Source: Escherichia coli (GTDB lineage: Bacteria; Pseudomonadota; Gammaproteobacteria; Enterobacterales; Enterobacteriaceae). From it: DNA of 64,000 nucleotides. Below are positions 1,824-29,506 of this stretch, piece by piece. Position 1 is the stretch's first letter, and each line of letters opens with the position of its first letter. The stretch is taken from the NCBI RefSeq assembly GCF_045037415.1, contig NZ_CP173438.1; one strand, 5' to 3'. The translations under genes and the position numbers were made by a program. The notes beneath the pieces were generated by a model. The model was not told the DNA's origin, ran no database searches, and worked only from the letters and a program-made list of their open reading frames with translations.

Positions 1824-1844
1824 CGACTCTTCAATAACTGACAA

Positions 1845-1871
1845 GGCCCGAGTTATCGGGCCTATTTTTTA
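1845..1871. terminator. Hairpin plus T-tract between convergent uspE and ynaJ
   Basis: GGCCCGA-gtta-TCGGGCC stem followed by TATTTTTTA. Confidence 0.6.
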
Positions 1872-1872
1872 C

Positions 1873-2130
1873 TTACTGCTCTTCGCCGCCAAGGAAATAA
1901 ATTCCCAACGGGATTGCCAGCAACACAGTAAAGACCAGGCTATAAACAAAAATCATCGATGACTGAATCACATACATTGATGTCGTCCACTCAGACAGCG
2001 GAATATTGTACTGTTCTATAACGCCGCCGATGGTCGCGCGAGTCACAACCGACGCCGCAATAATGAAAACCGCCAACAAACCAAAGAGAAATTTCTTCCC
2101 TTTCGCTGACTTCAGTTTCGCCATAATCAT
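1873..2130 (-). CDS. ynaJ: Small inner-membrane protein YnaJ (DUF2534)
   Basis: 85-aa ORF with two hydrophobic segments; position between uspE and ynaI. Confidence 0.85.
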   Translation of the reverse strand: MIMAKLKSAKGKKFLFGLLAVFIIAASVVTRATIGGVIEQYNIPLSEWTTSMYVIQSSMIFVYSLVFTVLLAIPLGIYFLGGEEQ

Positions 2131-2373
2131 GATGTAATCCTTGTGCAGACAAATTTTTTGTTACCTAAACGTAACAATACCATGACATTTCACCGTTGTC
2201 TGCTCTGAAAACCTCACCTCTTAGCTGGATTTACAATCAACGCATTGATTAGTTAGCTAATGTTGCTACTTCCTTCCCTGACTATTGATGATCTGAATGA
2301 ATTGTCGCGGTAAAATAGTCCCGCCAGGGGTTTCCGGCATGACGACAATTATCTGGAGGAGCCTGATAAAACA

Positions 2374-3405
2374 ATGATCGCTGAACTGTTTACAAATAAT
2401 GCGCTTAATCTGGTCATTATTTTCGGTAGCTGCGCAGCATTGATTCTGATGAGCTTTTGGTTTCGCCGTGGAAATCGTAAAAGAAAAGGATTTTTATTCC
2501 ATGCGGTGCAATTTTTAATCTACACCATAATTATTAGTGCTGTTGGTAGCATCATTAACTATGTTATAGAAAACTATAAACTCAAATTTATCACCCCAGG
2601 CGTTATCGATTTTATCTGTACGTCCCTGATTGCGGTTATTCTGACGATTAAGCTATTTCTGCTGATTAATCAGTTTGAAAAACAGCAGATTAAAAAAGGT
2701 CGCGATATCACCAGTGCGCGGATCATGTCGCGCATTATCAAAATCACCATTATTGTGGTGCTTGTTCTGCTTTATGGCGAACATTTCGGCATGAGCCTTT
2801 CTGGCTTGTTGACCTTTGGTGGTATTGGTGGTCTGGCTGTCGGTATGGCCGGTAAAGATATTCTGAGTAACTTCTTTTCCGGGATTATGCTCTATTTCGA
2901 CCGTCCTTTCAGTATTGGCGACTGGATCCGTTCACCGGACAGAAATATCGAAGGTACAGTAGCGGAAATTGGCTGGCGAATTACCAAAATTAAGACCTTT
3001 GATAATCGTCCATTGTACGTACCGAACTCGCTGTTTTCGTCGATCAGCGTAGAAAATCCTGGACGAATGACCAACCGGCGCATTACCACGACCATTGGTT
3101 TACGTTATGAGGATGCGGCAAAAGTGGGCGTTATTGTCGAAGCCGTACGTGAGATGCTGAAAAATCACCCGGCCATCGACCAGCGACAAACCTTACTGGT
3201 TTATTTCAACCAGTTTGCTGATTCGTCATTAAATATTATGGTTTATTGCTTTACCAAAACCACGGTATGGGCTGAATGGCTTGCTGCACAGCAAGACGTT
3301 TATTTGAAGATTATCGATATTGTACAGTCACACGGCGCGGACTTTGCCTTCCCCAGCCAGACGCTGTATATGGATAACATTACACCGGCGGACCAGGGTC
3401 GCTAA
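2374..3405 (+). CDS. ynaI: MscS-family mechanosensitive channel YnaI
   Basis: 343-aa ORF; N-terminal TM helices plus MscS-like C-terminal domain; synteny. Confidence 0.9.
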
Positions 3406-3415
3406 ATCAGACATC

Positions 3416-3445
3416 ACTGGCGTTATCCACAAGGGTAACGCCAGT
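3416..3445. terminator. Bidirectional hairpin between convergent ynaI and mppA
   Basis: ACTGGCGTTA / TAACGCCAGT 10-bp inverted repeat with 10-nt loop. Confidence 0.5.
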
Positions 3446-3455
3446 TCTCATCACA

Positions 3456-5069
3456 TCAATGCTTCACAATATACATAGTCCGACTGTACGCCACATCTTC
3501 AGGGTTGTTAATGGGATAACCTTTCAGCCACGGCTTGATTAATCGTCCATTGGTATATTGATAAATTGGTGCAATCGGTGCTTGCTCCATGAGGATTTTT
3601 TCTGCCGCGTTGTAATCGGCATTACGCGCTTTAACGGTATTTTCCGTCGATGCCTGGGCCAGAACTTTGTCATATGCCGGATTGTTAAAGCGTGAAATAT
3701 TCCCGGAATGCGTTGACGTTAATAATGTCAGGAAAGTGGAGGGTTCATTATAATCCCCTACCCACGAGGCGCGGATAACATCAAAATTGCCGGTATTACG
3801 GCTATCGATATAGGTTTTCCATTCCTGGTTTTGCAATTTAACATCTACGCCCAGGTTCTTTTTCCACATCGATGCTACAGCAATCGCAATTTTTTGATGG
3901 TTTTCTGAAGTGTTATACAAAAGCGTCAGCTTCAGCGGTTTTTGCGGACCATAACCAGCGGCGCTCAACAAAGTTTTTGCCTGCGCATTCAGTTCTTCCT
4001 GACTCATTTGTTCAAACGGCGAAGGTTCCGGCGTAAATCCCGCGGTAACATCTGGTGTAAAATGCCACGCTGGCTTTTCGCCCGTCCCCAACACTTTTTC
4101 GGTCATCAGGCGGCGATCTATCGTCATACTTAATGCCAGGCGAACGCGCTGATCTGCCGTCGGCCCTTTTTGCGTGTTAAACGCATAATAATAGGTCCCG
4201 AGCTGCGGCGGCGTATAAACCTGCCCCGGAATATCCTTCAACAGCTTCTGATACATATTTTTCGGGAAGGATTCGGTGATATCAATATCCCCCGCGAGAT
4301 AACGCTTAGTGGCTGCGGATTCCTGATTAATTGGCAGGAAGGTCACTTTTTGCAGTACCGTTTTGGCGTTATCCCAATAATGGGTATTCGGCACTACGAC
4401 CAGTTTTTCATTGACTACGCGCTCTTTAAGAACATAAGCGCCATTGCCGATCAGATTTCCGGGTTTCGTCCACTCTTTACTGCTTTCTACGTTGGCTTTT
4501 TGCACCGGGAAGAAGGCAAAGTTAGCGGTTAAATTCACAAACCACGGCAACGGTTTATCAAGCTGGATTTTCAAAGTATGGGCATCAACTGCGGTAACGC
4601 CAAGCTGGTCAGGCGTGGCTTTACCATCAATAATCGCCTGTGCGTTGTTGATTCCCGCCAGCGCGGCAAACCATGCAAATGGCGAAAGCGTTTTCGGGTC
4701 CACCAGACGTTGCCAGCTGTAGACAAAATCTTGCGCCGTTACCGGTGTGCCATCCGCCCATTTTGCGTTATCGCGCAGGGTAAAAGTCCAGATACGGTTG
4801 TCATTACTTTTCCACTGAGTCGCAACGCCGGGGACAATCTCCCCTTTCTCGTTCTGATTCACCAGTCCTTCAAACAGATCGCGAATGACCTGAATCTCCG
4901 GCAGGCCCACGGCTTTAGCGGGATCCAGCGACGCTGGCTCATCTTTAATGTGGCGCACCAGCTCCTGCTTCTCTGCCAGTACTGTGCCGCTCGGAACTTC
5001 AGCAGCATACGAAAGAGAAATGCTGCTGACCAACAGCGCACAACACGTGACTGAAACAGAGTGCTTCAT
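3456..5069 (-). CDS. mppA: Periplasmic murein tripeptide-binding protein MppA (OppA paralog)
   Basis: ORF 3456..5090; start placed at MKHSVSVTCCALL (signal peptide) giving 537 aa; SBP family 5. Confidence 0.9.
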   Translation of the reverse strand: MKHSVSVTCCALLVSSISLSYAAEVPSGTVLAEKQELVRHIKDEPASLDPAKAVGLPEIQVIRDLFEGLVNQNEKGEIVPGVATQWKSNDNRIWTFTLRDNAKWADGTPVTAQDFVYSWQRLVDPKTLSPFAWFAALAGINNAQAIIDGKATPDQLGVTAVDAHTLKIQLDKPLPWFVNLTANFAFFPVQKANVESSKEWTKPGNLIGNGAYVLKERVVNEKLVVVPNTHYWDNAKTVLQKVTFLPINQESAATKRYLAGDIDITESFPKNMYQKLLKDIPGQVYTPPQLGTYYYAFNTQKGPTADQRVRLALSMTIDRRLMTEKVLGTGEKPAWHFTPDVTAGFTPEPSPFEQMSQEELNAQAKTLLSAAGYGPQKPLKLTLLYNTSENHQKIAIAVASMWKKNLGVDVKLQNQEWKTYIDSRNTGNFDVIRASWVGDYNEPSTFLTLLTSTHSGNISRFNNPAYDKVLAQASTENTVKARNADYNAAEKILMEQAPIAPIYQYTNGRLIKPWLKGYPINNPEDVAYSRTMYIVKH

Positions 5070-14999: not shown

Positions 15000-15998
15000 A
15001 TGTCCCCTACTATTTATGATATTGCCAGGGTTGCAGGCGTATCAAAATCCACCGTATCACGCGTGCTGAATAAGCAAACCAATATCTCCCCGGAAGCGCG
15101 CGAAAAAGTGTTACGGGCCATTGAAGAATTACAGTATCAACCAAACAAGCTGGCCCGCGCGCTGACCTCTTCGGGTTTTGATGCCATTATGGTGATTTCT
15201 ACTCGTTCGACCAAAACTACGGCGGGTAATCCATTTTTCTCTGAAGTTTTGCATGCCATCACCGCCAAAGCAGAAGAAGAAGGTTTCGACGTGATATTAC
15301 AAACGTCGCACAATCCGGCAGAAGATCTGCAAAAATGCGAAAGCAAAATTAAGCAGAAAATGATTAAAGGCATTATTATGCTAAGTTCGCCTGCCGATGA
15401 ATCCTTCTTTGCACAACTCGACAAATACGAGATCCCGGTGGTGGTGATCGGTAAAGTTGAAGGTCAATACAGCCATGTTTATTCCGTCGATACCGATAAT
15501 TATGGCGACAGTATTGCGCTGACCAATGCGTTAATTGAAAGCGGGCATAAGAATATAGCCTGCCTGCATGCGCCGCTTGATGTACAAGTTTCAGTGGATC
15601 GGGTAAATGGTTATAAGCAAAGTCTGGCTACGCATAATATTGCAGTGCGTGATGAATGGATTGTTGACGGCGGTTATACCCATGAGACAGCATTAAAAGC
15701 AGCACGGGAATTATTAAGCCAGTCACCGTTGCCTGAGGCAGTGTTTGCTACTGACAGCCTGAAATTAATGAGTATTTATCGTGCGGCGGCAGAGAAAAAC
15801 ATTGCTATTCCGCAGCAGTTAGCGGTGGTGGGTTATAGTAATGAAACGCTGTCGTTTATATTAACGCCTGCACCAGGCGGCATCGATGTTCCGACGCAGG
15901 AGTTAGGTCAACAAAGCTGCGAGTTATTATTCCAGTTAATTGCCGGAAAACCGTCACCACAAAATATTACCGTTGCTACGCATATGTCGTTGAAATAA
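15000..15998 (+). CDS. ycjW: LacI-family transcriptional repressor YcjW
   Basis: 332-aa ORF; N-terminal LacI HTH ([21 protein letters not shown]) and periplasmic-binding-protein-like sensor domain. Confidence 0.9.
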
Positions 15999-16003
15999 AT
16001 GTA

Positions 16004-16035
16004 TGCCGGATTTGGCGCTCGCCCCGCATCCGGCA
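16004..16035. repeat. REP-like palindromic unit between convergent ycjW and ompG (probably also a terminator)
   Basis: TGCCGGAT...ATCCGGCA inverted repeat, GC-rich, resembling REP/PU elements. Confidence 0.5.
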
Positions 16036-16048
16036 ATTTAGCACATTA

Positions 16049-16954
16049 TCAGAACGAGTAATTCACCCCAACACCCGCATAATGGAATTTATCGCTGTCG
16101 CCTTCGTCGTGATCCTGCCACTCAAACGCGTATTCCAGCGAAACGGAAAGACCATTCTGGAAATCATAACCGTAAAATAAACCCACACGGTTAAAATCAT
16201 GGCCTTCACGTTCAATATCATCCTGCCAGTCCCAGTTACTCCAGCGATCCAGCCCAATGCGCGTATACGGCGTCACCGAGTGGTTGCCGAGCGTCAGCGG
16301 CAAATAGGCGCGAATTTCTTGCGTGGAAAACTCACCGTTATTGCGGCTATCATCCATATTGAAACCACGCTCGAGATAATAGTTCACTCGCAAGGCAACC
16401 GTTTCGTTGAAGGTATATTGCAGACCCGTTTCCGTTTCGACACGGGTATCAGCATAACCGGTCGTATTCAGATCGTTGGCAAATTTATACATCGACAGCC
16501 AACCGTTGAAACGTAAATCGTCAGTCAGTTTCACATCCCAGTCTGGCGCGATTTTCCAGCGCTGCATATTTGCCGTGTCTTTACCCGGTTCATCAACGTA
16601 GTGATAACCATAGTTACGGAAACCACCAGTCAGACCGAGACTGAAATCATCGCTTTCGAGGAACTGATAATGTACCTCCAGCTCCGGGCGATCAAACCAC
16701 GTTCCACGTTTACCCGCGCTATAATCTACCGGCCCTTCCTGATAATAGGCCAGAGAAATTCTCCACGGCCCGTTGGCGGCATTAAAATAGACAGAAGGCT
16801 CTGCCAGCCCATCCATATCTTCGACATAACCCTCGACGTTTTCTATTTCGTACATCGCGCCGATATTAAAGTGCCAGTTGTTCTTTTCCTCGGCCTGTGC
16901 GCAGGCCATTCCCGCACACATCACCAGTGCGGTACAGGGTAATAACTTTTTCAT
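16049..16954 (-). CDS. ompG: Outer membrane porin OmpG
   Basis: ORF 16049..17005; start placed at MKKLLPCTALVMCAGMACA (signal peptide) giving 301 aa; C-terminal aromatic residue. Confidence 0.9.
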   Translation of the reverse strand: MKKLLPCTALVMCAGMACAQAEEKNNWHFNIGAMYEIENVEGYVEDMDGLAEPSVYFNAANGPWRISLAYYQEGPVDYSAGKRGTWFDRPELEVHYQFLESDDFSLGLTGGFRNYGYHYVDEPGKDTANMQRWKIAPDWDVKLTDDLRFNGWLSMYKFANDLNTTGYADTRVETETGLQYTFNETVALRVNYYLERGFNMDDSRNNGEFSTQEIRAYLPLTLGNHSVTPYTRIGLDRWSNWDWQDDIEREGHDFNRVGLFYGYDFQNGLSVSLEYAFEWQDHDEGDSDKFHYAGVGVNYSF

Positions 16955-16998
16955 TATTGTTCCTTGTATTATCCTGGGAGAATGCCTTCCCCCTGTAT

Positions 16999-18081
16999 TT
17001 AGCAAATTGCTATTTCCGTTTCTGCATCAAAGAAATGACATTTAGTCATATCAAAATGAATAGTGATATTTTCTCCTGCATGATAATCATTTAACGCACC
17101 AGCACGGACCACTAACTCGTGCCCCCCAACCGTGGTGTAGAGCATAAATTCCGCACCGGTTAATTCCGCCACGCTAATTTTGGCGGAAATGTTATTTTCT
17201 TCTTGCGCATCCGGATGAATATCCTCCGGGCGTATTCCCATCACAATGGGTTTATGTAAACTTTCCTGCGTTTTCAGAACCGCTAATTTCTCTTCGGGAA
17301 TGGTTAATTTAAGTGTTTCCGTAACGAATTTATCGCCATCGATCGTGCCGCGAATAAAATTCATTGCTGGTGACCCAATAAATCCGGCAACAAACATATT
17401 CGCCGGTTGGTTATAGACCGTTTTCGGCGCACCGACCTGCTGAACAATCCCATCCTTCATAATGACAATCCGCGTCGCCATGGTCATCGCTTCGGTCTGA
17501 TCGTGGGTCACGTAGATCATGGTGGTGTTCAGTTTCTGATGCAGCTTGCTGATCTCTGCGCGCATTTGCACACGCAGCTTGGCATCCAGGTTAGAGAGCG
17601 GCTCATCCATTAAAAACACGCCCGCTTCGCGCACAATCGCCCGCCCAAGCGCCACTCGCTGACGTTGCCCGCCGGAAAGCGCGCCCGGCTTGCGTTTCAG
17701 GTACTCACGCAGGCCGAGGATTTGCGCCGCCCAGTTAACCCGCTCATCAATCATCTCTTTGGCGATTTTTTGTATCTTCAGGCCAAACGCCATGTTGTCG
17801 TAGACCGTCATATGCGGATACAGCGCGTAGTTCTGGAACACCATCGCGATATTGCGTGCTTTGGCTGGAACGTCATTCATTCGTTTGCCGTCGATCAACA
17901 GCTCACCGCCGCTGATCTCCTCAAGCCCGGCAATCATACGCAGGGTGGTCGATTTACCGCAGCCCGACGGACCGACAAACACGATGAACTCTTTATCGGC
18001 AATCTCCAGGCTGAAGTCCTTCACCACATGCACCTGGTTATCGTAGATCTTTTGAATATGTTGTAACGAAAGCTGTGCCAT
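16999..18081 (-). CDS. ycjV: ABC transporter ATP-binding protein YcjV (MalK/UgpC-like), apparently intact
   Basis: 360-aa ORF; Walker A GPSGCGKST, signature LSGGQRQRV, Walker B FLMDEPLS and a C-terminal MalK-type regulatory domain. Confidence 0.9.
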   Translation of the reverse strand: MAQLSLQHIQKIYDNQVHVVKDFSLEIADKEFIVFVGPSGCGKSTTLRMIAGLEEISGGELLIDGKRMNDVPAKARNIAMVFQNYALYPHMTVYDNMAFGLKIQKIAKEMIDERVNWAAQILGLREYLKRKPGALSGGQRQRVALGRAIVREAGVFLMDEPLSNLDAKLRVQMRAEISKLHQKLNTTMIYVTHDQTEAMTMATRIVIMKDGIVQQVGAPKTVYNQPANMFVAGFIGSPAMNFIRGTIDGDKFVTETLKLTIPEEKLAVLKTQESLHKPIVMGIRPEDIHPDAQEENNISAKISVAELTGAEFMLYTTVGGHELVVRAGALNDYHAGENITIHFDMTKCHFFDAETEIAIC

Positions 18082-18094
18082 GTTGATTCCTTTG

Positions 18095-18754
18095 CTATAC
18101 GTTTTGCCAGAAGGCCGATAACCGCGGCCAGGTCAGGGAGTCCGTTGAGGGCAACAATAATTGCGCCCCGGTTAAGCCCGCGCCGATCCCCACCGAGCGC
18201 ATACCGCTGGCGTTAATGGCGTCAATGCCCGCCTGCGCATCTTCAATGCCGATACATGCCTGTGGCGGCACGCCCAGCCCTGCACAGGCGGCGAGAAAGA
18301 TTTCCGGGTCCGGTTTCGAATTTTTGAGTTGGGAAGCGTCCGCGCAGAAGGTGAAAAACTCGCGCAGCTCCAGCGCTGCTAAAATCGTCGGCGCATTCAG
18401 GGAGACAGAAGCCAGCCCAACTGGAATCTGCTGTGCCCGGAGATCTACCAGCAAATTGTGAATGCCAGGCAGCACAGCATTAACCGTCAGTTCGCGCAGT
18501 GAGTGGACGTAAAGCAGATTTTTGCGATACGCCAGTTGCGCCCGTTCCTGTGGGTTAAAATCGCCCTCTTTACCCCCGTGCTGCAGAATTCGCCGCAGGG
18601 ACTCATCGCGGCTGATCCCTTTTAGGAATTCGTTAAACTGCGCATCAATGCTGATGCCAATTTCAGCGGCAATCTGCTGCCACGCCTGGAAATGCAGATG
18701 CGCGGTATCGGTGATTACTCCATCCAGATCGAAAATTACCCCTTGCAGTTTCAT
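18095..18754 (-). CDS. ycjU: Beta-phosphoglucomutase (HAD superfamily)
   Basis: 219-aa ORF; HAD motif [11 protein letters not shown]. Confidence 0.9.
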
Positions 18755-21018
18755 TCACCCTCCTGATGCGTGGTAGCGGTCCCATTGAAGGGCAAAATAA
18801 AATCCCCCAAACAGAAAACAGATTCTTCAGCGACGTAAATAAGCTGACCGTTCAAACGCAGTGAAACAGGCGCAGAAGTTCGAATCGCAATACGCTGCGC
18901 GTCGAGAGTGACCTGTAATTCGCAGCCCTGCCAGAACAGAGGGAAAGACAACTGTTGCCACTGCTCAGGTAACGCCGGATTGAGATGTAATTCACCGTCA
19001 CGCACGCTCACCCCGGCAAAACCCTGAATCGCCCCCAGCCAGATAGCGCCAGTTGCGGCAGCGTGGATACCGTCATCACAGCTATGCGGATCAGCACCAA
19101 GATCGATTTCAGTCCCCTCGCGCCAGAACTGATAACTTTGGGTCAGCAGGCCACAGCGTGCGGCAACAATGCCGTGGATTGCTTTACTTAATGACGAGTC
19201 GTGAATAGTGCGCGGTTCATAAAATTGCAGATTGGCAAGACACGATGCCGCTGAGAACTGCTCCGGCAGCATGTAATTGAGCATCACCACATCAGCTTGT
19301 TTGAGGATCTGCATCTCGTTCACTTCTGCGCGTGAATAATCCAGCAGAATGGTTTGCTTCCCCGCCGCCGCTTTGTATTTCGCCAGATTAATCACCGGCT
19401 TAGCCATAAACGAATCATCCTGCGGCAAAACGCCGTCGGGCTGAATTTCTGGCAGCCGCAGTTCTTTGAGGTACATTTCTGCACGATGAATAAACGCGTC
19501 GTCGCTACAGCCAAACTGACGAGCGATATTCAGCGCCTGCTGGACGTTGTAATACGCCATATAGCTGGTGAAGGCGTTATTATTGACATGTTCGGTATAT
19601 TCGTCTGGCCCAATAACATCATGAATTTCCAGACGCTCGTTAACCCTCACCGCGCGGCTAATCCAGAACTTTGCCGTCTCCAGAAGTAGCGCCATGCCTT
19701 CATGAGCAATGAAACTTTCATCCCCCGTGGTCCGCCAGTATTGAATCACCGCCCAGGCGATATCGGCGACCAGATGGTGTTCCGCCTGCGCAGAGGCCAC
19801 TTTTTGCCGCAGCCCGGTACGAATGTTAATGGCGGCAAATTCCGGCGTCTCTTCTTCGCCGCTACGCGCGCTTTCCCACGGAAACAGAGCGCCCTGCCAG
19901 CCGTTGCGTCGCGCTTTCTCCTGCGCGCCAGGCAAGTTGTGCCAGCGATAACGCAGTAAACTTCGGGCAACCGTCGGATCGCTAAACAGATGGAACGGTA
20001 GCAAAAATACTTCTGTATCCCAGAAAACGTGGCCTTTGTAGCCTTCGCCGGTTAAACCTTTCGCCGCAATGCTGCTGCGCTCATCGTGGGCAGGCGTCAT
20101 GATGCGCAGGTGATAAAGCGCATAATCTAATGCTTGCTGATCGTGCGCATCGCGGCCGTTTACCGTGATACGACGTTTCTGCCACCATTGACGCCAGTTT
20201 TCTGTTGATGCTGCAAGAAGTTGGTCGTAACTCTGCTGCGCGCACATTTCAAGCTGACGAAGCGACGCACTGCCCCATTCGTCTAAAGCGGCTTGTCTGT
20301 CGTCCCGCCAGTCGATCCACACCAGTTTTTGCAGCGTCAGCGTCTCACCTGCGTGAAGCTGCGCGCAGGTATGTTGCAATAAACGGCGCTCTTTGGCGGT
20401 ATAGCATTGCTGCACATCACCGCTCACCTTACAGCAACAGCTGATGGCCACATCACTACGCCCATCCTGGGTGGTGTAGATCCCCTGCATCAGATGCTGA
20501 CCAAACACCCGCACCTGGATTTCGTCAATATGCTGGCGACCGTGGTTGGTTTGCGTGGCGTCAATGCCTGTTGAAATCAGCACTGACGCGTCGGCGTCCA
20601 GTGGAGTAATAGTGATTTCCAGCGCAATGAGCGGCAGTTGGTCTGCCGAAACAAAGCGACGGCTGGCGATGGTGTAACCAGTGCCGTTGCTGGTACGCCA
20701 GACAACGTTGCGACGTAATTCGCCACTGGCAAAGTTAAGCTCACGCTGCCATGCTTCGCGGGATAACGAGAAAATCTCACCATTTATGGCAATCTCCATC
20801 CCCACGACATCAGGCAGGTTCACCAGTTCGTTGATTTCTCCTTTACCCGCTCGATGATACAGCCCCGCCAGATACATCCCACGGGTCTGGCGCGTGTAAT
20901 CTTCTTCATGGCTGGCACGAAGCCCAAGATAGCCGTTCCCCTGCGCCATCAGCGAAGCATACTTGTTCAGGGTATGCTGGCTGAAATGGGGTTCTGATAA
21001 CGTTACTGGCCTGGTCAT
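18751..21018 (-). CDS. ycjT: Kojibiose phosphorylase (glycoside hydrolase family 65)
   Basis: 755-aa ORF; GH65 architecture; synteny in the ycj cluster. Confidence 0.9.
18769..18785. promoter_or_regulatory. Candidate YcjW (LacI-family) operator, inside the last codons of ycjT and just upstream of ycjU
   Basis: CGTGGTAGCGGTCCCAT, identical over 17 bp to 28696..28712; fits the LacI-family core TGnnAnCGnTnnCA. Confidence 0.6.
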
Positions 21019-22070
21019 AATTCCACACGCGTCCCTGTTTCCGCGGATTGATACAACGCCGCCACCAGTTGCTGGATGATGTACCCCTGCTCGGCGTCGG
21101 CTATCATCACGGGCTTGCCCTGTACGTGATTGATAAAGGCTTCCATGCTGCGCAAATGGCGGTTGTCGTCTGCCATTTCCCGTTGCATCAGCGTCATTAA
21201 TTCACCGTTGTTATCGGTGTAGATATGTGCCGGAAACAGCGTCGCACCGGCTTTATCACCACAAAAGCTGACATTCATAATCGACTGTTCGCGGATGTTG
21301 AGTGCAAATGACGTTTCCAGCCACAGAATGCCGCCGTTATGAAATTCAATGGTGCCAAACAGCGAATCTTCAACGCTGTAAGTTGCCGGGTCCCACTCGC
21401 CAAATTGACCACAGCTCTTTTGCGTGCCGATCTTTTGAAAGCTATGCGCATTCACGCTTTTCACCGCCGGAAAGCCCAGCACATACATCGCAGCATCCAG
21501 CATATGAATGCCGATGTCGATCAGCGGGCCACCACCCTGCAGTTCTTTATTGGTAAAGACACCCCAGCCGGGAACGCCGCTGCGACGCAGGGCGCGGGCG
21601 GTGGTAACGTAAATCTCTCCCAAAACGCCGTTGGTCACCTGTTCACGCAGCTGTTGCGTATCGAACGCAAAACGATGGTGAAAGTCGTAGGCCAGCACCT
21701 TGCCCTGTTTGCGCGCGGTATCGCACATTTCCCGCGCCTGTTCTGCCGTCATGGCGGGCGGTTTTTCGCACATCACATGGCAGCCCGCTTCAAGCGCCAT
21801 CAGGGTATGTTCGTAATGAAAACGGTTCGGTGAGCAGACGCTAACCACATCAGGTTTCACCGCCAGCAGCATGGCCTGCGGATCGTCCCACAAGGATGCA
21901 TTACCGTATTTTTCTGCCAGCGCCTGCGCCTGGGAAAGGCGGCTGTCACAGACGGCCACCAGTTCCAGATCGTTGCGGGTGCAGTAGTACGAAGCATGAA
22001 CCTTATCCGCCACCTGGCCTGCGCCGATTATCGCGACACGCAGCGGAGAGCTTGTCATTGCACTTTTCAC
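21015..22070 (-). CDS. ycjS: Gfo/Idh/MocA-family NAD-dependent sugar dehydrogenase YcjS
   Basis: 351-aa ORF; N-terminal Rossmann fold VAIIGAGQVA. Confidence 0.85.
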   Translation of the reverse strand: MKSAMTSSPLRVAIIGAGQVADKVHASYYCTRNDLELVAVCDSRLSQAQALAEKYGNASLWDDPQAMLLAVKPDVVSVCSPNRFHYEHTLMALEAGCHVMCEKPPAMTAEQAREMCDTARKQGKVLAYDFHHRFAFDTQQLREQVTNGVLGEIYVTTARALRRSGVPGWGVFTNKELQGGGPLIDIGIHMLDAAMYVLGFPAVKSVNAHSFQKIGTQKSCGQFGEWDPATYSVEDSLFGTIEFHNGGILWLETSFALNIREQSIMNVSFCGDKAGATLFPAHIYTDNNGELMTLMQREMADDNRHLRSMEAFINHVQGKPVMIADAEQGYIIQQLVAALYQSAETGTRVEL

Positions 22071-22079
22071 AAAGACCTC

Positions 22080-22868
22080 TTAGCAGGTGCGCAACCAGGC
22101 CAACGAATCACGGTACGCCTGGGCAGGAGCTTCTGCCCGGATACGCCCTTCATACACCACATAACCCTGATAGTTATCGGCGCGCAGCTGTTCAAACAGC
22201 GCGTGGAAATCGAGGGTGCCGCTGCCCGGCTGGTAACGATGGTTATCGGCAATATGCACATGACCGAGCAAGTCGCGGTGGTCATGCAGCGCCTGCGCCA
22301 GGTTATCTTCTTCGATGTTCATGTGATAGAAATCGCCGATAATCTGCACATGTTTAAGATCGTTTTCGACGATGTAACGGCGGGCATCGGCGAGAGTATT
22401 GATCATATGATCCTGATAACGGTTTAACGGTTCGAGATACACCACGGTTCCGGTACGCGCGGCGACCTGTTCCAGTACGCGCAGGGAATCACTCACCATT
22501 TTGCGGTCGCCGTCCAGGCTGCGCGGCGAGGTCATCGGCGGTAAACGGAAGGTAAACATGCCCCATGCAGCAGGAACGACGATACCTTTACCGCCCACTT
22601 CTGCCAGCGCTTCGAGAATGCGTTCGATCTGCTTTAAGCCATTAAGACGACGCTCTTCGATAAAATCACCAATCCAGCCGTCATAGCCGCCGCAGGCAGT
22701 GGTCACCGGTAAACCGGTTTCTTTGATCGCCGCTTTGACTTCTTCGATGTTGTTGACCAGCAGTTTGCCGTCAATCTCAAAACCATCGAAGCCCATCTCT
22801 TTGATGTAACGAAATTTCTCCAGAATATTTCCCGGAAAGAATGCCTGATTCTGTGTGCCTATTTTCAT
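22080..22868 (-). CDS. ycjR: Sugar-phosphate isomerase/epimerase (xylose-isomerase-like TIM barrel) YcjR
   Basis: ORF 22080..22997; start placed at MKIGTQNQAFF (ATG at 22866-22868) giving 262 aa. Confidence 0.85.
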   Translation of the reverse strand: MKIGTQNQAFFPGNILEKFRYIKEMGFDGFEIDGKLLVNNIEEVKAAIKETGLPVTTACGGYDGWIGDFIEERRLNGLKQIERILEALAEVGGKGIVVPAAWGMFTFRLPPMTSPRSLDGDRKMVSDSLRVLEQVAARTGTVVYLEPLNRYQDHMINTLADARRYIVENDLKHVQIIGDFYHMNIEEDNLAQALHDHRDLLGHVHIADNHRYQPGSGTLDFHALFEQLRADNYQGYVVYEGRIRAEAPAQAYRDSLAWLRTC

Positions 22869-22885
22869 TTTTTCATTCCTTTGAA

Positions 22886-23938
22886 TTAAAACGTAACGCC
22901 CATTTTGATGCTCTGTTCCGGATGCTGATCGACATACTGCATGTAGCTTTCCGGGCTGTTGGCAAAGGTCACTACCGGGTCGATTAAATCTTCGCAATTG
23001 AGATAACCGTTCATCAGCAGTTCCCAGCAGGTTTCTTCAATACGCTTACGGCTCCAGCGCGGATAATCCGGGTTCGGTTCGCTGCACGCGCGGGAGAAAA
23101 CAATTTTGGCGTTATTGAAATGCGCTTCGCGTCCGAGGTTAAAACCTTCAGCAAATGGTTTGGCAAACGCGACATAGGAGATGGTGCCGCCGTAGGCCAG
23201 ACCGCGGAGCGCCGACTGCAGCGCGTCGGCGTAGCCGCTGGTTTCGATAATCACATCGGCACCCTGCTTGCCGGTCAGCGTTTTGATCTCTTTACCTACG
23301 TCAGCGCCAATGGGGTTAAGACAGAAATCCGCACCGTGGCGACGGGCAATATCACAGCGATGAGCGATAGGATCGACACCAATCACCACCGACGCGCCAG
23401 CGCGTTTTGCCAGTTGAATGGCAATTTGACCAATCGTGCCAAGCCCTACCACCACCACAAAATCGCCCACGCGCACGTTGGCATCGCGCACGCCGCTCAT
23501 GGCAAACTGCGCCGGGTCGTAACAGACGGCGTTTTTCCAGGAGCTGCCTTGCGGCATTTTGCGCAGCTTGTAGTTATTCACTGCGTTAATGATGACCGTC
23601 TCGGAGAGCGGGCCGTAGCCGCATACGCTGTCGCCCACCGCGTAGTCGTTAACGTCGCTGCCGCACTCGATAATGTCGCCAACCACCATGTTGCCAAGCT
23701 GGAACTTGCCAAACTCAATGCCGCGCGGCGCATTTGCCGGACGCGGGCTGAACATCTGCCATTCACCGTTAAAGTCTTCATCGATAAACGGACTGGCAGC
23801 GCGGAAATCGACCACTTCCGTCCCGTGCTTCGGAGCGCCGAAACGCACGCGGATCTTCACTTCATTGGCTAAAATCGCCCGCTCTTCATACTCAACCAGC
23901 GCAGCTACACGCGGTGCTGTGGCTACTAACTTTTTCAT
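22886..23938 (-). CDS. ycjQ: Zinc-binding medium-chain alcohol/sugar dehydrogenase YcjQ
   Basis: 350-aa ORF; MDR-family NAD-binding GxGxxG (VVGLGTIGQ). Confidence 0.85.
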   Translation of the reverse strand: MKKLVATAPRVAALVEYEERAILANEVKIRVRFGAPKHGTEVVDFRAASPFIDEDFNGEWQMFSPRPANAPRGIEFGKFQLGNMVVGDIIECGSDVNDYAVGDSVCGYGPLSETVIINAVNNYKLRKMPQGSSWKNAVCYDPAQFAMSGVRDANVRVGDFVVVVGLGTIGQIAIQLAKRAGASVVIGVDPIAHRCDIARRHGADFCLNPIGADVGKEIKTLTGKQGADVIIETSGYADALQSALRGLAYGGTISYVAFAKPFAEGFNLGREAHFNNAKIVFSRACSEPNPDYPRWSRKRIEETCWELLMNGYLNCEDLIDPVVTFANSPESYMQYVDQHPEQSIKMGVTF

Positions 23939-23968
23939 GTAAAACTCCTTGTAAAGAAATTGGTCGCT

Positions 23969-24811
23969 TTAGCCCTTCACGCCACCAGCGGTCAAACCAC
24001 TCTTAATAAAACGTTCCGAAAGCGCATACATAATCACTACCGGTAGTGCGGTCACCAGCGAGGCCGCCATCATCCGTCCCCAGATGTAATCAGGCGTACT
24101 GAACAGCGCGTTCAGGCCCACAGGTAAGGTGAAATTGCTGGCGCTGGAAAGGAAAATCGACGCAAACAGATAGTCGTTCCACGCCACCATAAAGCAGTAG
24201 ACGAATACGGATATCAGCCCGGACATTGCCAGGGGCACGGTGATACGGAAGATAATTTGCAGACGATTGAGGCCATCCATCATTGCCGCTTCTTCGATTT
24301 CATCGGGGATGGTGTCGAAGTAGCTTTTCAGCATAAACACGGCGGTAGGCAGAGTTTGCGTCACCATGGTGATAATCAGCGCCATCTCGGTGTCGTAAAT
24401 GCCAAGTGCGGTGATGATTTTGAACAGCGGCACCACCAGCAAAATGCCGGAGAACATGTACACCGTGTAAAAGCTGGCGTTGATGGTCATTCGCCCTTTA
24501 AAGCGCAGGCGGGAAAGCGCGTAAGCCCCAAGAATGCCGAGAAATACCGCCACCACGGATGAAACCACCGACACCACCATGCTGTTACGGAAGTAGTCGA
24601 CAAACGGGAAAATCACCGGATTAAAAATGTCGACGTAATGCTCCAGCGTCCACTGCTGTGGCAGCAACGTAGGATGCAGCGAGATCGCCTCTTTTGCGCT
24701 CTTGAACGAGGTCATCAGCATCACAAAAAATGGAAACAGCGTGATGATGAGAAACAGCGCCAGCCCGCAGTAAAAACCGATTCGACTGAGTGTGCGTTTA
24801 TTTGTTGCCAT
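23969..24811 (-). CDS. ycjP: ABC sugar transporter permease YcjP
   Basis: 280-aa ORF; multiple TM helices and MalG-like EAA loop region. Confidence 0.85.
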   Translation of the reverse strand: MATNKRTLSRIGFYCGLALFLIITLFPFFVMLMTSFKSAKEAISLHPTLLPQQWTLEHYVDIFNPVIFPFVDYFRNSMVVSVVSSVVAVFLGILGAYALSRLRFKGRMTINASFYTVYMFSGILLVVPLFKIITALGIYDTEMALIITMVTQTLPTAVFMLKSYFDTIPDEIEEAAMMDGLNRLQIIFRITVPLAMSGLISVFVYCFMVAWNDYLFASIFLSSASNFTLPVGLNALFSTPDYIWGRMMAASLVTALPVVIMYALSERFIKSGLTAGGVKG

Positions 24812-25679
24812 TGAGGTTCACCCGTTTCCTGGTCAGCAGAATGACAGCGAAAATAATGATGAAAAGCACCACCGAGATCGCCGCCGCTTTCCCTAAGTCA
24901 TTAAAGGCAAAGGCGGTTTTGTAGAGATAGACACCGAGAATATCGACCTTGGTCGTCAGCAGATAAACATCCGCGAACATGTAGAACATCCAGATAGTGC
25001 GCAGGGTCACCACCGTCGCCAGAACCGGCATAATCGCGGGCAGCGTGACGATGCGAAACCGTTGCCAGGCATTCGCGCCATCCATCTCTGCCGCTTCGTA
25101 CAGCGATTTGTCGATGGTCTGCAAAATCGCCAGAAACGAGATAAAGGCATACGGGAAGTAGCGCCAGATGGCGAACAGCACCACCAGCACAAAACTACTG
25201 CCCGGGTTATCGAACCACAGCGGCGCCTGCTCATAGAGATGCAGAAGATCGACGCCGAGGTAGTTCACAATGCCGTAGCCGTTGTTGAACATGTATTTCC
25301 AGGCGAACACCAGCGAAATAGACGGCGTTACGTAGGAAAGGATCACCAGCGAACGCGCGGTTTTGCGCAGGCGGAACTCGCGGTTGAAAAACATCGCCAC
25401 GGCCAGCCCGAGCACGGTGCTGCCCGCCACCACAAGCGCGGTATACCAGACCGTCATCCACAGCGAGTGCCAGAAACCAGGATCGGAGAGAATGCGCACA
25501 TAGTTACTCACCCCAACAAACGTTGACTCGATGTTGGGATTAAGCGGCAGACGTAAAAAACTGATTTCGATATTCGACACCATCGGCCACGCCACCAGAC
25601 CGCCCAGCAGTAATAAGCTGGGCGCGAGAAGCAACAGCGCAAAGGGCATATCGGAACGACCTGAAAAAAGCCTGTTCAT
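24798..25679 (-). CDS. ycjO: ABC sugar transporter permease YcjO
   Basis: 293-aa ORF; MalF-like permease; 14-bp overlap with ycjP. Confidence 0.85.
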   Translation of the reverse strand: MNRLFSGRSDMPFALLLLAPSLLLLGGLVAWPMVSNIEISFLRLPLNPNIESTFVGVSNYVRILSDPGFWHSLWMTVWYTALVVAGSTVLGLAVAMFFNREFRLRKTARSLVILSYVTPSISLVFAWKYMFNNGYGIVNYLGVDLLHLYEQAPLWFDNPGSSFVLVVLFAIWRYFPYAFISFLAILQTIDKSLYEAAEMDGANAWQRFRIVTLPAIMPVLATVVTLRTIWMFYMFADVYLLTTKVDILGVYLYKTAFAFNDLGKAAAISVVLFIIIFAVILLTRKRVNLNGNK

Positions 25680-25699
25680 TGCGGATTCCTGTCCTGGGT

Positions 25700-26992
25700 T
25701 TAGCGCTGTTCGACCAACTCATCCAGCTTTTTCTGGCTCGCTTGCAGCGTGCCAGGGAGGTCGGCTTTACCCACGGTGACGTTATGCACCATTGAACTCA
25801 CCACACCAGACCCCGTCACATCACCCATGCGGGTAAAGTTTTTATCCCCTACTGCGCCAAAGACCTGAATATTTGGCAATTCGCTGATTAGCTGATTCGG
25901 CAATTCTCCCAGCGCCTTAATAACGTCGTTGTCTTTCCAGGTGGCGGTAGTGACAACCGCTTTGTTCACCGGCAGCGCCGCGCCTGGTGACATCATCACC
26001 CAGTCGGCAATGTTGTCCGCCTGCTCCATAAAGGTGACAAATTTTTCAGCCGCTTCGGTCTCTTCAGTCTTTTGCCCGGCGGTAATGGTCAGCGAGGTCA
26101 ACATGCCGTAGACCGCAGAATTTTTCTCGGTTGGCACCACGAAACCAACGTTTTTCGGATCGCCTTCTTTAATCACAGCCGGAAGGATATAGGTGGAGTA
26201 AATCGCCATCGGCGCGGTGCCGTTCATAAAAGCGTCTTTCACTTCCATGATGTCGTTAGAACCTGGCATGGTGTTGGCAGCAAGGTTGCGGTAATAGGTC
26301 AGCGCCTGCATCATCTCTGGTGTATCAAGGGTGATTTTGCCTTCGGCGTTAAAGACGTTAGCCTGATTGGATAACGCAAACTGGGAGAAAGACTGTTCCG
26401 TCAACACGCTTTCTGCTGTAGGCAGCGCAATACCGTATTTTTTATTCGCCGGGTCATTCAGTTTCTGTGCAACGTCCAGCAATTGCTGCCAGTTTTTTGG
26501 CTCCTCCAGCCCAGCTTTTGCCAGCACATCTTTGCGATACCAGATCCCGCCAATCCATGCGCTGACAGGAACACCGGTCCAGGCGCTGCCATCTTCGGTG
26601 CGCACAATCCGCAGTACGCCATCGTAGAACGCGCCTTCACCGACGTTGCTGATGACCGTGGCAACCGCTTTACGATCGATAAGCTGCTCTTTGTCCATCA
26701 CTTTGGCGTAGTCATGGCTGGTTTCGATCACTTCCGGCAGCGAACCGCTACGTGAAAGGGTAATGACTTTGGTGTTATAGGCGTCTTCTTCCACGGGCAC
26801 TTGTTTTACGGTGATACCTGGGTTTTCTTTTTCAAAACGGGCAATCAATTTGCTGATGACGGCCTGGCGCTCCTGCTCCACCGAAGAATGCATAAATTCG
26901 ATGGATACATTATTTTTATTTTCTTCTTTACAGCCTGAAATCAGGGCGCAGGAAACCAGTGCTGATAACAGCACGATTTTTGATTTAATCAT
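25700..26992 (-). CDS. ycjN: Periplasmic sugar-binding protein YcjN (ABC transporter)
   Basis: 430-aa ORF; lipoprotein-like signal (LISGC); SBP family 1. Confidence 0.85.
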   Translation of the reverse strand: MIKSKIVLLSALVSCALISGCKEENKNNVSIEFMHSSVEQERQAVISKLIARFEKENPGITVKQVPVEEDAYNTKVITLSRSGSLPEVIETSHDYAKVMDKEQLIDRKAVATVISNVGEGAFYDGVLRIVRTEDGSAWTGVPVSAWIGGIWYRKDVLAKAGLEEPKNWQQLLDVAQKLNDPANKKYGIALPTAESVLTEQSFSQFALSNQANVFNAEGKITLDTPEMMQALTYYRNLAANTMPGSNDIMEVKDAFMNGTAPMAIYSTYILPAVIKEGDPKNVGFVVPTEKNSAVYGMLTSLTITAGQKTEETEAAEKFVTFMEQADNIADWVMMSPGAALPVNKAVVTTATWKDNDVIKALGELPNQLISELPNIQVFGAVGDKNFTRMGDVTGSGVVSSMVHNVTVGKADLPGTLQASQKKLDELVEQR

Positions 26993-27005
26993 GAAATGTT
27001 CCTTT

Positions 27006-28685
27006 TTATTTAATCCACATAACCTGCCAGGGATGCAGTGTTATTTCATTACCCAATATATCAACTTCACTAATCAGATCCCGACCGTGCAGGTCAGTAA
27101 TATTTATATGCTGAATATTTTCGCTGACATTAAACAATCCCGTCAGGCAATCGCCATCCGCATTGCTTCTTTGAATTCGCATTACAAATGAATTAATTGC
27201 ATCGATGGTGAAATTATTATCCGGATGAAACTCTTTATGACTGCGACGAAGGGTAATTAAATGCGACAACTTATAATATACCGAATACCTTAATGTCGCT
27301 TTATTGTCCAGTTCTGTCGTTATCTCTTTACTAGAGTATTTTTTACGGTTAATCGCGCGATTATATCCAAGTTTTTCGACACCGGCGTAATCATTACGCG
27401 ACCCCAGAATGCTTTGAATATATATCGCTGGCACACCGGGGAAACTTAACAAAATCGCATGGGCGAGAATAAACCTGGCACACCGTTCTTCGTCGCTACA
27501 CTCACGGCGGCTCAACGCATCCATATAGGTGACATTCATTTCATAGGGGCTACGCGTACCGTCGGGATTATTTTTCCAGTTTACTAATGCCCCTTCCTGC
27601 TGTAACACCTCGACCAGCGCTAATATTTCGTTTTCGGGTAACAACCCCCGCAGTGGGTTAAGCCCGATGCCATCGTGAGAGGCAAGGAAGTTAAACCAGG
27701 TGGTGTTGCTGGAAGGTAGTGTCAGGTTTTGCGCCCACGCACAAAGTGCCTCAACGTTCTGTTTTTGCACCGCATGCAGCACCAGCGGCGGCAGCGAGAA
27801 CTGGTACACCATATGCGCTTCGTCATCGCCTTCGCCAAAGTAAGCAATGTTGTCTTTATGCGGAACATTGGTCTCGGTAATGATCACTGTGCCTGGCGCG
27901 ACGTTATCAATAATCGAACGTAACAGTTTGATAATCAGATGTGTTTTTTCCAGATGGATGCAGTTTGTTCCCGGCTCTTTCCACATAAAGCCAACGGCAT
28001 CCAGACGGACATACTCTGCGCCCTTTTCCAGGTAGCACAGCAATACATCCACCATCGCCAGCAACACTTCAGGGCTACGGTAATTGAGGTCAATTTGATC
28101 GTCGCTAAAGGTGGTCCATAAATGACGCGTTGAATGATCGCGCATCTGGAATGGCGTTAATAACGGTAACGCACGCGGGCGAGTGACGGCGCTGAGATCG
28201 GTTTTCGGATCAACGGTAATAAAAAAATCTTCAAAACCTGGCTGCTGTTGTAAATAGTTTTTAAACCATTCACTTTTTGCCGACATATGGTTGCAGACAA
28301 AATCAAACATTAAATGGCTGCATTCACCGAGTTGCTGAATATCCTGCCACTCCCCCGCTTCACTGGCGACCTGATGATAATCAATTACCGAAAATCCATC
28401 ATCAGATGACCATGGATAAAAAGGTAATAAATGAACATGTGAAAAAATTCTTTGCAGCCATTGAGGGTAAAACTGATTAAATGTGGGTAGTGGCTTTAAA
28501 TCATTACTGTGAAATTGATCGGCATAGGTAATTAACACGACATCACTTTCATCCCAGTGTTTTTTACGTCGCTGTGTAATTAATCGTTTCGCACTCTCAA
28601 GACGCGTTACAAGTTTCTGTAAATGAGTCGCGGTAAATGTTCCACCGTAGATTTCGTCCAGGTAATCCGTAATTTTCTGTTGCAT
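27006..28685 (-). CDS. ycjM: GH13 sucrose-phosphorylase-like enzyme YcjM (reported glucosylglycerate phosphorylase)
   Basis: ORF 27006..28712; start placed at MQQKITDYL (ATG at 28683-28685) giving 559 aa. Confidence 0.85.
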   Translation of the reverse strand: MQQKITDYLDEIYGGTFTATHLQKLVTRLESAKRLITQRRKKHWDESDVVLITYADQFHSNDLKPLPTFNQFYPQWLQRIFSHVHLLPFYPWSSDDGFSVIDYHQVASEAGEWQDIQQLGECSHLMFDFVCNHMSAKSEWFKNYLQQQPGFEDFFITVDPKTDLSAVTRPRALPLLTPFQMRDHSTRHLWTTFSDDQIDLNYRSPEVLLAMVDVLLCYLEKGAEYVRLDAVGFMWKEPGTNCIHLEKTHLIIKLLRSIIDNVAPGTVIITETNVPHKDNIAYFGEGDDEAHMVYQFSLPPLVLHAVQKQNVEALCAWAQNLTLPSSNTTWFNFLASHDGIGLNPLRGLLPENEILALVEVLQQEGALVNWKNNPDGTRSPYEMNVTYMDALSRRECSDEERCARFILAHAILLSFPGVPAIYIQSILGSRNDYAGVEKLGYNRAINRKKYSSKEITTELDNKATLRYSVYYKLSHLITLRRSHKEFHPDNNFTIDAINSFVMRIQRSNADGDCLTGLFNVSENIQHINITDLHGRDLISEVDILGNEITLHPWQVMWIK

Positions 28686-28695
28686 GTTGCCTTTC

Positions 28696-28712
28696 CGTGG
28701 TAGCGGTCCCAT
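28696..28712. promoter_or_regulatory. Candidate YcjW (LacI-family) operator in the ycjM leader
   Basis: CGTGGTAGCGGTCCCAT about 10-27 bp upstream of the ycjM start codon; twin of 18769..18785. Confidence 0.6.
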
Positions 28713-28856
28713 GAAGCGAGAGACTACTCCGCATAAAATAAACTGTCAATTGAGCTCAAGGGGTTTAGTCACGCAGGAAATCTTTTTTTACCTGGGAAAA
28801 AGCGTATTTGTGAGCTGACGCAAATAATCTATGGGGATGTAAATAAGGTGTGACAG

Positions 28857-28878
28857 AAAAAAACGGCGCATAAGCGCC
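28857..28878 (-). terminator. Rho-independent terminator downstream of pspE
   Basis: Minus strand: GGCGC-TTAT-GCGCC hairpin followed by TTTTTTT. Confidence 0.7.
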
Positions 28879-28895
28879 GCTCATGGTGAATTCTT

Positions 28896-29210
28896 TTAAC
28901 CTTTGACCTTCGGCATTGCGATGTCTTTCAGGCCACCGGCGTTCTCAACGTGGGTATATCCCATCTCGCTAAGGATCTCTTTTGCCTGCCCTGACTGGCG
29001 TCCGGCATTGCAATACACTTTCACGGTGTCGTTTTTATCCGGAACGGCGGTAGCAATGCGCTCTTTCACTTCCTTCAGGGGAATATTGATGGCCCCCTGA
29101 ACGTGCTCTTGCTGATACTGCTCTGGAACACGAACATCGATCCAGTGTTCAGCGGCGAAAACGGGCAGTGAAAACACCAGTGTCAGAGCAAGTAAGCCTT
29201 TTTTAAACAT
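28896..29210 (-). CDS. pspE: Periplasmic rhodanese (thiosulfate sulfurtransferase) PspE
   Basis: 104-aa ORF with signal peptide and rhodanese active-site region (VKVYCNAGRQS). Confidence 0.95.
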   Translation of the reverse strand: MFKKGLLALTLVFSLPVFAAEHWIDVRVPEQYQQEHVQGAINIPLKEVKERIATAVPDKNDTVKVYCNAGRQSGQAKEILSEMGYTHVENAGGLKDIAMPKVKG

Positions 29211-29284
29211 GTAAGCGTCCTTCTATGGATGAAAATTGCTATCCATTATACGCCTGAGATTTAACCATTTTTGCGAAACTCCCC

Positions 29285-29506
29285 TCACCTTTTATAACGC
29301 TGCGCCAGTTTATTGGCAGCCCGACTTAACAGCGGTTCCAGCGCCACAGCCAGCAACATTTTCAGCGGTCGGCGAGCAACTGATTTTATCGCCCAGCCCG
29401 CCACACCCGCCGGGCCATAGCGCAGTGCGGTAAGAAGTACCAGCTTGCCTGCTAATTTGAACCCAGGCTTCACCTTTTGCCCGGCCTGTTGCCAGCGAGT
29501 ATTCAT
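29285..29506 (-). CDS. pspD: Phage shock protein D
   Basis: ORF 29285..29518; start placed at [10 protein letters not shown] giving 73 aa. Confidence 0.85.

Follow-up and report, generated by a model that had tools for sequence, protein, structure and literature searches.

A second YcjW operator inside the end of ycjT in Escherichia coli: conservation as DNA and a possible transcriptional roadblock before ycjU, ycjV and ompG

Operators of LacI-family repressors seldom lie within genes: fewer than 1% of the family's sites are in coding regions, and the named exceptions are the sites of LacI in lacZ and of PurR in purB (PMC4052901, Ravcheev 2014). The E. coli repressor YcjW has a site that belongs with these, although the K-12 papers place it 'between ycjT and ycjU' (PMC6599011, Luhachack 2019; PMC8464067, Gao 2021). 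We analysed this site in a 64-kb stretch of E. coli DNA (contig NZ_CP173438.1; 'the window' below), where its true position is within the ycjT reading frame, with a twin in the leader of ycjM, the first gene of the operon. The core, the position and the ycjM twin are those of the K-12 element, and it is nearly certain that this is the known second YcjW operator before ycjU, the binding of which was published in 2019 and 2021. As the site and its binder have both been published before, no new element is added here. Neither the mechanism nor the conservation of the ycjU-site operator is addressed in either K-12 paper, and the question that remains is why a second full-strength operator should stand 10 kb downstream of the promoter. 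We find that the operator is under strong selection as DNA rather than as protein. The likeliest mechanism, in which we have about as much confidence as doubt, is that it would be a second lock acting on elongating polymerases, i.e. a roadblock.

The published binding data are clear. In chromatin immunoprecipitation with sequencing (ChIP-seq), the two strongest YcjW peaks are found before ycjM and between ycjT and ycjU and have a common 14-nt motif; the ycjM site precedes the start codon and follows the predicted transcription start (PMC6599011). The ycjM probe used in the electrophoretic mobility shift assay (EMSA) carries a core identical to that of the internal site, TGGGACCGCTACCA, and on this probe kojibiose frees YcjW from the DNA (PMC6599011). 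Chromatin immunoprecipitation with exonuclease treatment (ChIP-exo) gives a 30-bp ycjU site at 1378133-1378162 of NC_000913.2 with a signal-to-noise ratio of 1665, the highest of all YcjW sites, and a ratio of 840 for the ycjM site (PMC8464067 and its supplementary file 5). The converted ycjU interval is GCCCTTCAATGGGACCGCTACCAAACATCA in NC_000913.3 and is centred on the core. For the conversion we took the offset between the two versions of the reference to be 1,976 bp, a value that is supported by this very centring. The preliminary description of the window had named YcjW as the obvious candidate binder of a LacI-type operator here and had proposed EMSA, ChIP-seq and reverse-transcription quantitative PCR (RT-qPCR) as checks. 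Essentially all of these are already published and are supportive (PMC6599011, with the ChIP-exo in PMC8464067): binding is seen by ChIP-seq and ChIP-exo at this site and by EMSA on the identical ycjM core. The cognate regulator is encoded at the locus itself (ycjW; Table 1). It has 332 residues, with a Pfam LacI helix-turn-helix domain at residues 4-49 (E = 3e-20) and a Peripla_BP_1 domain at residues 77-323 (E = 2e-25).

Two further ChIP-exo intervals do not coincide with an operator core. The one assigned to ycjM maps ~106 bp downstream of the leader core, inside ycjM (NC_000913.3 1370296-1370331 in K-12; locus L087 1296-1331; roughly 28570-28605 in the window), and a weak third interval, with a signal-to-noise ratio of 38, lies inside ycjN (NC_000913.3 1371975-1372012; L087 2975-3012; roughly 26890-26925 in the window). 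Unlike the core-centred ycjU interval, neither the ycjM-internal nor the ycjN-internal interval contains a motif-like sequence.

The two sites were noticed through the 17-mer CGTGGTAGCGGTCCCAT, which had been said to occur exactly twice, about 10 kb apart, with both copies fitting the LacI-family core. Both statements hold. The two exact copies in the window are at 18769-18785 and 28696-28712, both on the plus strand and 9,927 bp apart, and there is no third copy in the whole window at up to three mismatches. The expected count of the 17-mer is 0.09, two or more copies were seen in none of 100 dinucleotide-preserving shuffles, and it is the sole perfect direct repeat of at least 17 nt within 15000-29500. 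The family pattern TGNNANCGNTNNCA is matched by both copies, but taken alone it is not significant (two found against 1.48 expected), so that the non-random feature is the exact duplication rather than the loose match to the pattern. What is conserved and functional is a 14-bp core, TGGTAGCGGTCCCA in the window and TGGGACCGCTACCA when read on the operon strand; the 17-mer of the preliminary description was rejected as the functional unit, as its flanking CG is variable within E. coli. Both copies of the core are imperfect palindromes within the 14-20 bp typical of LacI/GalR operators, with a central CG and the family core TGnnAnCGnTnnCA; read from the sequence, the half-sites are TGGGACC and TGGTAGC, which are symmetric at five of seven positions. 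A search for weaker extra copies in the window or the operon gave only chance-level matches with three or four mismatches.

Within E. coli, neither site shows any variation in the 14-bp core among seven alleles diverged by up to 6%, whereas the two bases 5' of the core vary among alleles (cg, tg or tt). Because of this variation in the extra 5' bases (CG), the two sites of K-12 have only a 15-mer in common, against 17 nt in the present strain. One O157 leader has a 1-bp deletion adjoining the core. The ycjT/ycjU junction region is present in 4,982 of 5,426 complete E. coli genomes, and a 40-nt query around the internal site was found in 4,900 genomes, all but eight of them at 95% identity or above.

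The junction itself falls into allele classes: over 18400-19200, identity to the window is at least 99% in 782 genomes, 95-99% in 1,788 and only 90-95% in 2,411. The divergence of the last class seems high for a chromosomal E. coli gene. Six of the junction matches are on records typed as plasmids. Several ycj genes are annotated as pseudogenes in a number of E. coli lineages (L002-L006 and L087, alleles of window 16000-28700): there is a frameshift or an internal stop in ycjM of L003, L004 and L006, an internal stop in ycjN of O157 (L004), and a frameshift in ycjV of K-12 and in ycjQ of L005. Each of the pseudogene-bearing E. coli alleles examined has kept the operator core intact at both sites.

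Conservation across genera was assessed in 79 loci from a YcjT search, with one genome per species. The whole operon, together with the convergent ycjW, is syntenic throughout the Enterobacteriaceae. The exact core TGGGACCGCTACCA stands at the orthologous position, the end of ycjT, in 33 of the 55 proteobacterial loci, and close variants are found in further loci. The genera with the exact core (Escherichia, Pseudocitrobacter, Citrobacter, Salmonella diarizonae, Enterobacter, Leclercia, Lelliottia, Trabulsiella and Huaxiibacter) include ones whose YcjT shares only 60-73% identity with its E. coli counterpart. Buttiauxella, Siccibacter and Franconibacter have either the internal variant TGGGAGCGGTACCA or a sequence one base removed from it, and Budvicia has a degenerate remnant. 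There is no internal site in Chimaeribacter, Limnobaculum or any Firmicute homologue among the 79 loci, even though the leader site is kept in all of these. In the 44 genomes for which both sites were captured, the leader core equals the internal core in 30; in three Buttiauxella genomes the two are identical but inverted. The two cores thus evolve together, which is expected of two targets of one protein. A link between the internal site and the presence of ompG was considered and rejected as imperfect: Budvicia has ompG and a degenerate site, and Franconibacter has a near-consensus site without ompG.

Some loci of this sample deserve a separate remark. The locus labelled Chryseobacterium sp. 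18061 (L034) has a complete enterobacterial ycj operon that is Enterobacter-like, with a YcjT ~62% identical to that of E. coli, and a metagenome-assembled genome labelled Citrobacter (L009) has 95-99% identity to E. coli; in both cases the assembly seems to be mislabelled or contaminated. A Limnobaculum locus (L078) and several Firmicute loci have an extra gene between ycjT and ycjU. The product of this gene in L078 starts MKIVIAPDSYKESL and presumably resembles glycerate kinase, which would fit glucosylglycerate catabolism.

The position of the internal site had been described correctly as overlapping the final ycjT codons, a short way upstream of ycjU. Codons 745-750 of ycjT (Asn-Gly-Thr-Ala-Thr-Thr) are covered by the 17-mer, which is 15-31 nt upstream of the ycjU ATG; the operator itself is translated as Gly-Thr-Ala-Thr. 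The codon alignment of ycjT from 33 taxa shows how unusual this stretch is. The operator is the fourth most conserved of the 2,291 14-nt windows in the gene and the third non-overlapping window in the ranking, behind motifs of the catalytic domain. Its five third-codon positions are conserved at 0.85, 1.0, 1.0, 0.91 and 1.0, compared with a gene-wide mean for third positions of 0.56, and only 6.4% of third positions in ycjT reach 0.9. The operator is nonetheless in the most variable part of YcjT, where the columns 10-30 nt to either side are typically conserved at 0.3-0.6. Where the operator does vary, it is second codon positions that change, with amino-acid replacements as the outcome (Thr-Ala to Ser-Gly), and the protein therefore follows the DNA.

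The protein context agrees with this. The Pfam GH65 domains of YcjT end at residue 726, and alignments with solved homologues go no further than residues 716-731; the operator is carried by the C-terminal tail of about residues 730-755 and is therefore in an extension beyond the GH65 fold. In two of three Atlantibacter loci (L046 and L049), YcjT ends directly after the conserved Asp-Phe-Ile motif and the operator is intergenic, 10 nt past the stop codon. The operator thus appears to have been intergenic originally; the reading frame of ycjT would have been extended over it, up to the start of ycjU, at a later time.

A T-rich stretch, GATTTTATTTT, lies at 18794-18803, 10-19 nt upstream of the internal core, and encodes the conserved Asp-Phe-Ile/Leu end of YcjT. 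Two third-codon T's within it are conserved at 0.91 and 0.94 in the 33 taxa, which is unusually high for ycjT. Codon bias may account for this, or else a constraint on the DNA, for example through a weak RNA-DNA hybrid at which a blocked polymerase would stall.

The conservation of the operator bears directly on the notion that the internal site is bound but has no function, being either a relic from the time when the operon acquired its distal genes or a sink for free repressor that buffers its level. Several observations would suit this notion. The role of the second site is not discussed in the 2019 study (PMC6599011); the site is degenerate in Budvicia and absent from Chimaeribacter and Limnobaculum, all of which keep ycjU and ycjV downstream; and in many E. 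coli lineages genes of the operon are turning into pseudogenes. A neutral site, however, would not stay identical at 14 of 14 positions, synonymous ones included, over more than ten genera amid diverging codons, and we regard a functionless site as unlikely. Given strong selection at the DNA level over more than ten genera, with four ycjT codons fixed, some function is to be expected, and control of the distal genes by the internal site, the first of two roles suggested in the preliminary description, is a plausible one that fits the deep conservation.

What kind of control this might be depends in part on whether the site has a promoter of its own. The leader has a predicted one. Its twin copy, correctly located in the preliminary description, ends 10 nt upstream of the ycjM ATG when counted as the 17-mer, and the arrangement around it is kept across genera: TTGACA, a 17-nt spacer, TAGTCT or TAGATT, 9 nt, the operator, ~12 nt and the start codon. 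By our own count this places the leader operator at roughly +4 to +17 of the predicted promoter, in agreement with the 2019 statement that the site follows the predicted start (PMC6599011). A conserved -35/-10 pair within ~40 nt upstream is thus present at the leader copy and absent from the internal one. A default promoter scan gave no promoter-like site in 18600-19400. A relaxed scan, which required a sum of at least 8 of 12 over the -35 and -10 hexamers together with A2 and T6, gave no -35/-10 pair over a stretch of 400 nt before the internal site and did recover the leader promoter. No hexamer upstream of the internal site is conserved across genera. An internal σ70 promoter was accordingly rejected as a candidate: both scans are empty, and the hexamer TATTTT at the site is not conserved in Enterobacter.

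A separate weak promoter serving ycjU, ycjV and ompG, with YcjW bound at ~+4 to +17 to block initiation, is nevertheless the main competitor, possible but in our judgement doubtful. It would agree with the position of the site relative to the start codon, which is typical of the LacI family (most sites are 30-140 bp upstream), and with the operon rule of RegPrecise, by which operons are split at internal sites (PMC4052901). A -10-like hexamer (TATTTT in E. coli, TATTAC in Citrobacter) lies 9 nt upstream of the core, as TAGTCT does in the leader, and derepression of ycjU and ompG is about double that of ycjT. The hexamer is, however, made up of codons, namely those for Phe-Ile-Leu in the conserved C-terminal motif of YcjT, and is poorly conserved as DNA: the diagnostic A is conserved in 52% and the final T in 45%, and Enterobacter has TCTTGC in its place while keeping a perfect operator. 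RNA polymerase is not flagged at the site in the ChIP-exo table, which is for glucose-grown cells (PMC8464067); this says little, since glucose is a repressing condition.

A role at the RNA level was also considered for the palindrome and rejected, as the two sites, taken with flanking sequence, fold no better than shuffles (z = -0.9 and +1.1), and no Rfam family was found in 15000-29500. In the predicted RNA fold of 18745-18800 (minus strand; z = -0.9), GCCCUUC upstream of the operator pairs with GGAGGGU of the ycjU Shine-Dalgarno sequence and the operator is in the loop.

The preliminary description had also offered looping between this site and the one at ycjM. The internal site would then be an auxiliary operator that raises the local concentration of YcjW and tightens repression of the main promoter, and the presence of two identical high-affinity sites in one operon, with the leader core equal to the internal one in 30 of 44 genomes, speaks for this. 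The obvious model is lac O2 in lacZ, which is likewise a second operator within a downstream coding sequence of its own operon. LacI, a tetramer, loops by means of its C-terminal tetramerization helix, and the lac operators are separated by 92 and 401 bp, the latter being the loop to O2, compared with 9.9 kb here. YcjW aligns only to residues 5-313 of LacI, ends nine residues past its Peripla_BP domain and so appears to have no LacI-type tetramerization helix. It has been modelled by homology as a dimer on PurR (PMC8464067). The internal site is moreover missing in Chimaeribacter, Limnobaculum and the Firmicutes, which keep the leader site. Judged by its sequence, YcjW would not be able to bridge the two operators, and with a repressor that is modelled as a dimer and lacks the helix, and with sites 9.9 kb apart, we consider looping very improbable.

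The roadblock is the reading that remains, and it ranks first, ahead in turn of the internal promoter, the functionless site and the loop. The internal site is inside a transcription unit, 9.9 kb past the ycjM promoter, with co-transcribed genes on both sides of it. By RT-qPCR on a ycjW deletion, ycjM is up ~45-fold, ycjT ~22-fold, ycjU ~45-fold and ompG ~40-fold (PMC6599011, source data), and this common rise of 20-45-fold is taken to reflect one transcription unit; pspE is also up in the deletion (PMC6599011). In the mechanism that we favour, YcjW, probably as a dimer, binds the 14-bp imperfect palindrome 9.9 kb into the single ycjM-to-ompG unit and would form a second lock in cis on ycjU, ycjV and ompG. 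The polymerases blocked there would be those that had escaped the leader operator, those from spurious starts within the operon and those reading through from psp. Inducer would free YcjW and both locks would open together. As to read-through, the psp operon and the whole ycjM-to-ompG operon are induced together after plasma stress (transcriptome preprint), and there seems to be transcriptional cross-talk between these neighbouring operons; read-through from psp would be consistent with the co-induction and would supply a downstream roadblock with polymerases to stop. A terminator-like hairpin is found after pspE, at 28861-28882 on the minus strand.

Of the described systems, PurR at purB is the nearest to such a mechanism: there too a dimeric LacI-family repressor has a palindrome with a central CG in a coding region, past the promoter and with none at the site. 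In 1992 He and Zalkin reportedly described the purB site as a transcriptional roadblock. Unlike the ycj site, the purB site is a few hundred base pairs into the regulated gene itself, and for the ycj site we infer the roadblock from the evidence given above. What sets the ycj internal site apart from both purB and lac O2 is its place 10 kb downstream, at the junction of two genes, and the fact that it duplicates the primary operator exactly.

Several points weigh against the roadblock. Consensus scans miss weak or activator-dependent promoters, and our default scan missed the leader promoter too. The E. coli TATTTT is exactly 9 nt upstream of the internal core, which is the leader spacing, and could be a weak -10. 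The ~2-fold larger derepression of ycjU relative to ycjT is matched by ycjM (~45-fold). As ycjM rises equally, the gap between ycjU and ycjT is within gene-to-gene scatter, and as ycjM is derepressed as much as ycjU and ompG, the RT-qPCR does not tell the mechanisms apart. Where ycjT is translated across the site, ribosomes could assist the polymerase in displacing the repressor. Finally, a roadblock, a loop or an internal promoter is nowhere mentioned in the 2019 study (PMC6599011).

The Firmicute operons (Neobacillus, Gottfriedia, Bacillus and Listeria; L050-L084) show another way of using the same parts. They have the motif family TGGGAGCGGTACCA and the ycjM-to-ycjT gene content in common with the enterobacterial operons, but carry two to five tandem copies of TGGGAGCGGTACCA, 33-106 bp apart, in the leader only, between divergent ycjW and ycjM genes (examples in Table 1). 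The first copy is 9-10 nt past a TTGACA-17-TATAAT promoter and the last is directly before the Shine-Dalgarno sequence. No operator copy was found at the ycjT end in L050-L084.

The features discussed are collected in Table 1. The operon, ycjM-N-O-P-Q-R-S-T-U(pgmB)-V-ompG, occupies the minus strand of the window and follows pspABCDE, and gene coordinates follow the RefSeq annotation of strain 4/1-1, which is 100% identical over 801 bp around the internal site. The ycjT stop codon (TGA, 18753-18751) overlaps the ycjU start (ATG, 18754-18752) as ATGA, and a GGAGG-like Shine-Dalgarno sequence is 1-10 nt past the operator in most genera. A start of ycjM at the ATG inside the leader 17-mer (28712), which would give the longest open reading frame (568 residues), was rejected; the RefSeq start is at 28685 (559 residues). 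Other genera do not conserve this upstream ATG, which is made up of the final three bases of the 17-mer, and by our own reading of the sequence the equivalent upstream GTG in Enterobacter runs into a stop codon.

Table 1. Operators, promoter elements and genes of the ycj locus. Positions refer to the window except in the last row, where they refer to the named loci.
Feature	Position	Strand	Remarks
Internal YcjW operator core	18771-18784	-	Inside ycjT codons 745-750; ends 16 nt upstream of the ycjU ATG
17-mer of the preliminary description	18769-18785		Core plus CG and T flanks
Leader YcjW operator core	28698-28711	-	Ends 12 nt upstream of the ycjM ATG; starts 9 nt after the -10
Predicted ycjM promoter -10, TAGTCT	28721-28726	-	Relaxed scan and cross-genus conservation
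Predicted ycjM promoter -35, TTGACA, 17-nt spacer	28744-28749	-	Invariant in the enterobacterial leaders examined
ycjU Shine-Dalgarno sequence, AGGAGGG	18758-18764	-	Between the internal operator and the ycjU ATG; read from the sequence
ycjT, kojibiose phosphorylase (GH65)	18751-21018	-	RefSeq annotation
ycjU (pgmB), beta-phosphoglucomutase	18095-18754	-	First gene past the internal operator
ycjV, ATP-binding cassette (ABC) transporter ATP-binding protein	16999-18081	-	RefSeq annotation
ompG, monomeric porin	16049-16954	-	RefSeq annotation; last operon gene
ycjW, LacI-family repressor	15000-15998	+	Convergent with ompG
ycjM, glucosylglycerate phosphorylase	27006-28685	-	RefSeq annotation; first operon gene
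Firmicute tandem operators, examples	L067 1870-2162; L058 2006-2182		General range ~1800-3800 of the loci

Taken in full, the proposal is that a promoter-less roadblock gates the ycjU-ycjV-ompG porin module of a 12-kb operon, that it has been kept throughout the history of the Enterobacteriaceae and that it has frozen four codons in a disposable ycjT tail gained over a once-intergenic operator; we put this whole account forward more tentatively than the roadblock by itself. If true, it would be one of very few natural roadblocks of the LacI family, and a case in which an operator dictates protein sequence. The conservation result also cautions against annotating the C-terminal residues of YcjT as features of the protein. 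Leaky expression of OmpG is plausibly harmful, and a roadblock at this position would be a clean natural case of elongation control by a LacI-family repressor, guarding a porin with a large channel.

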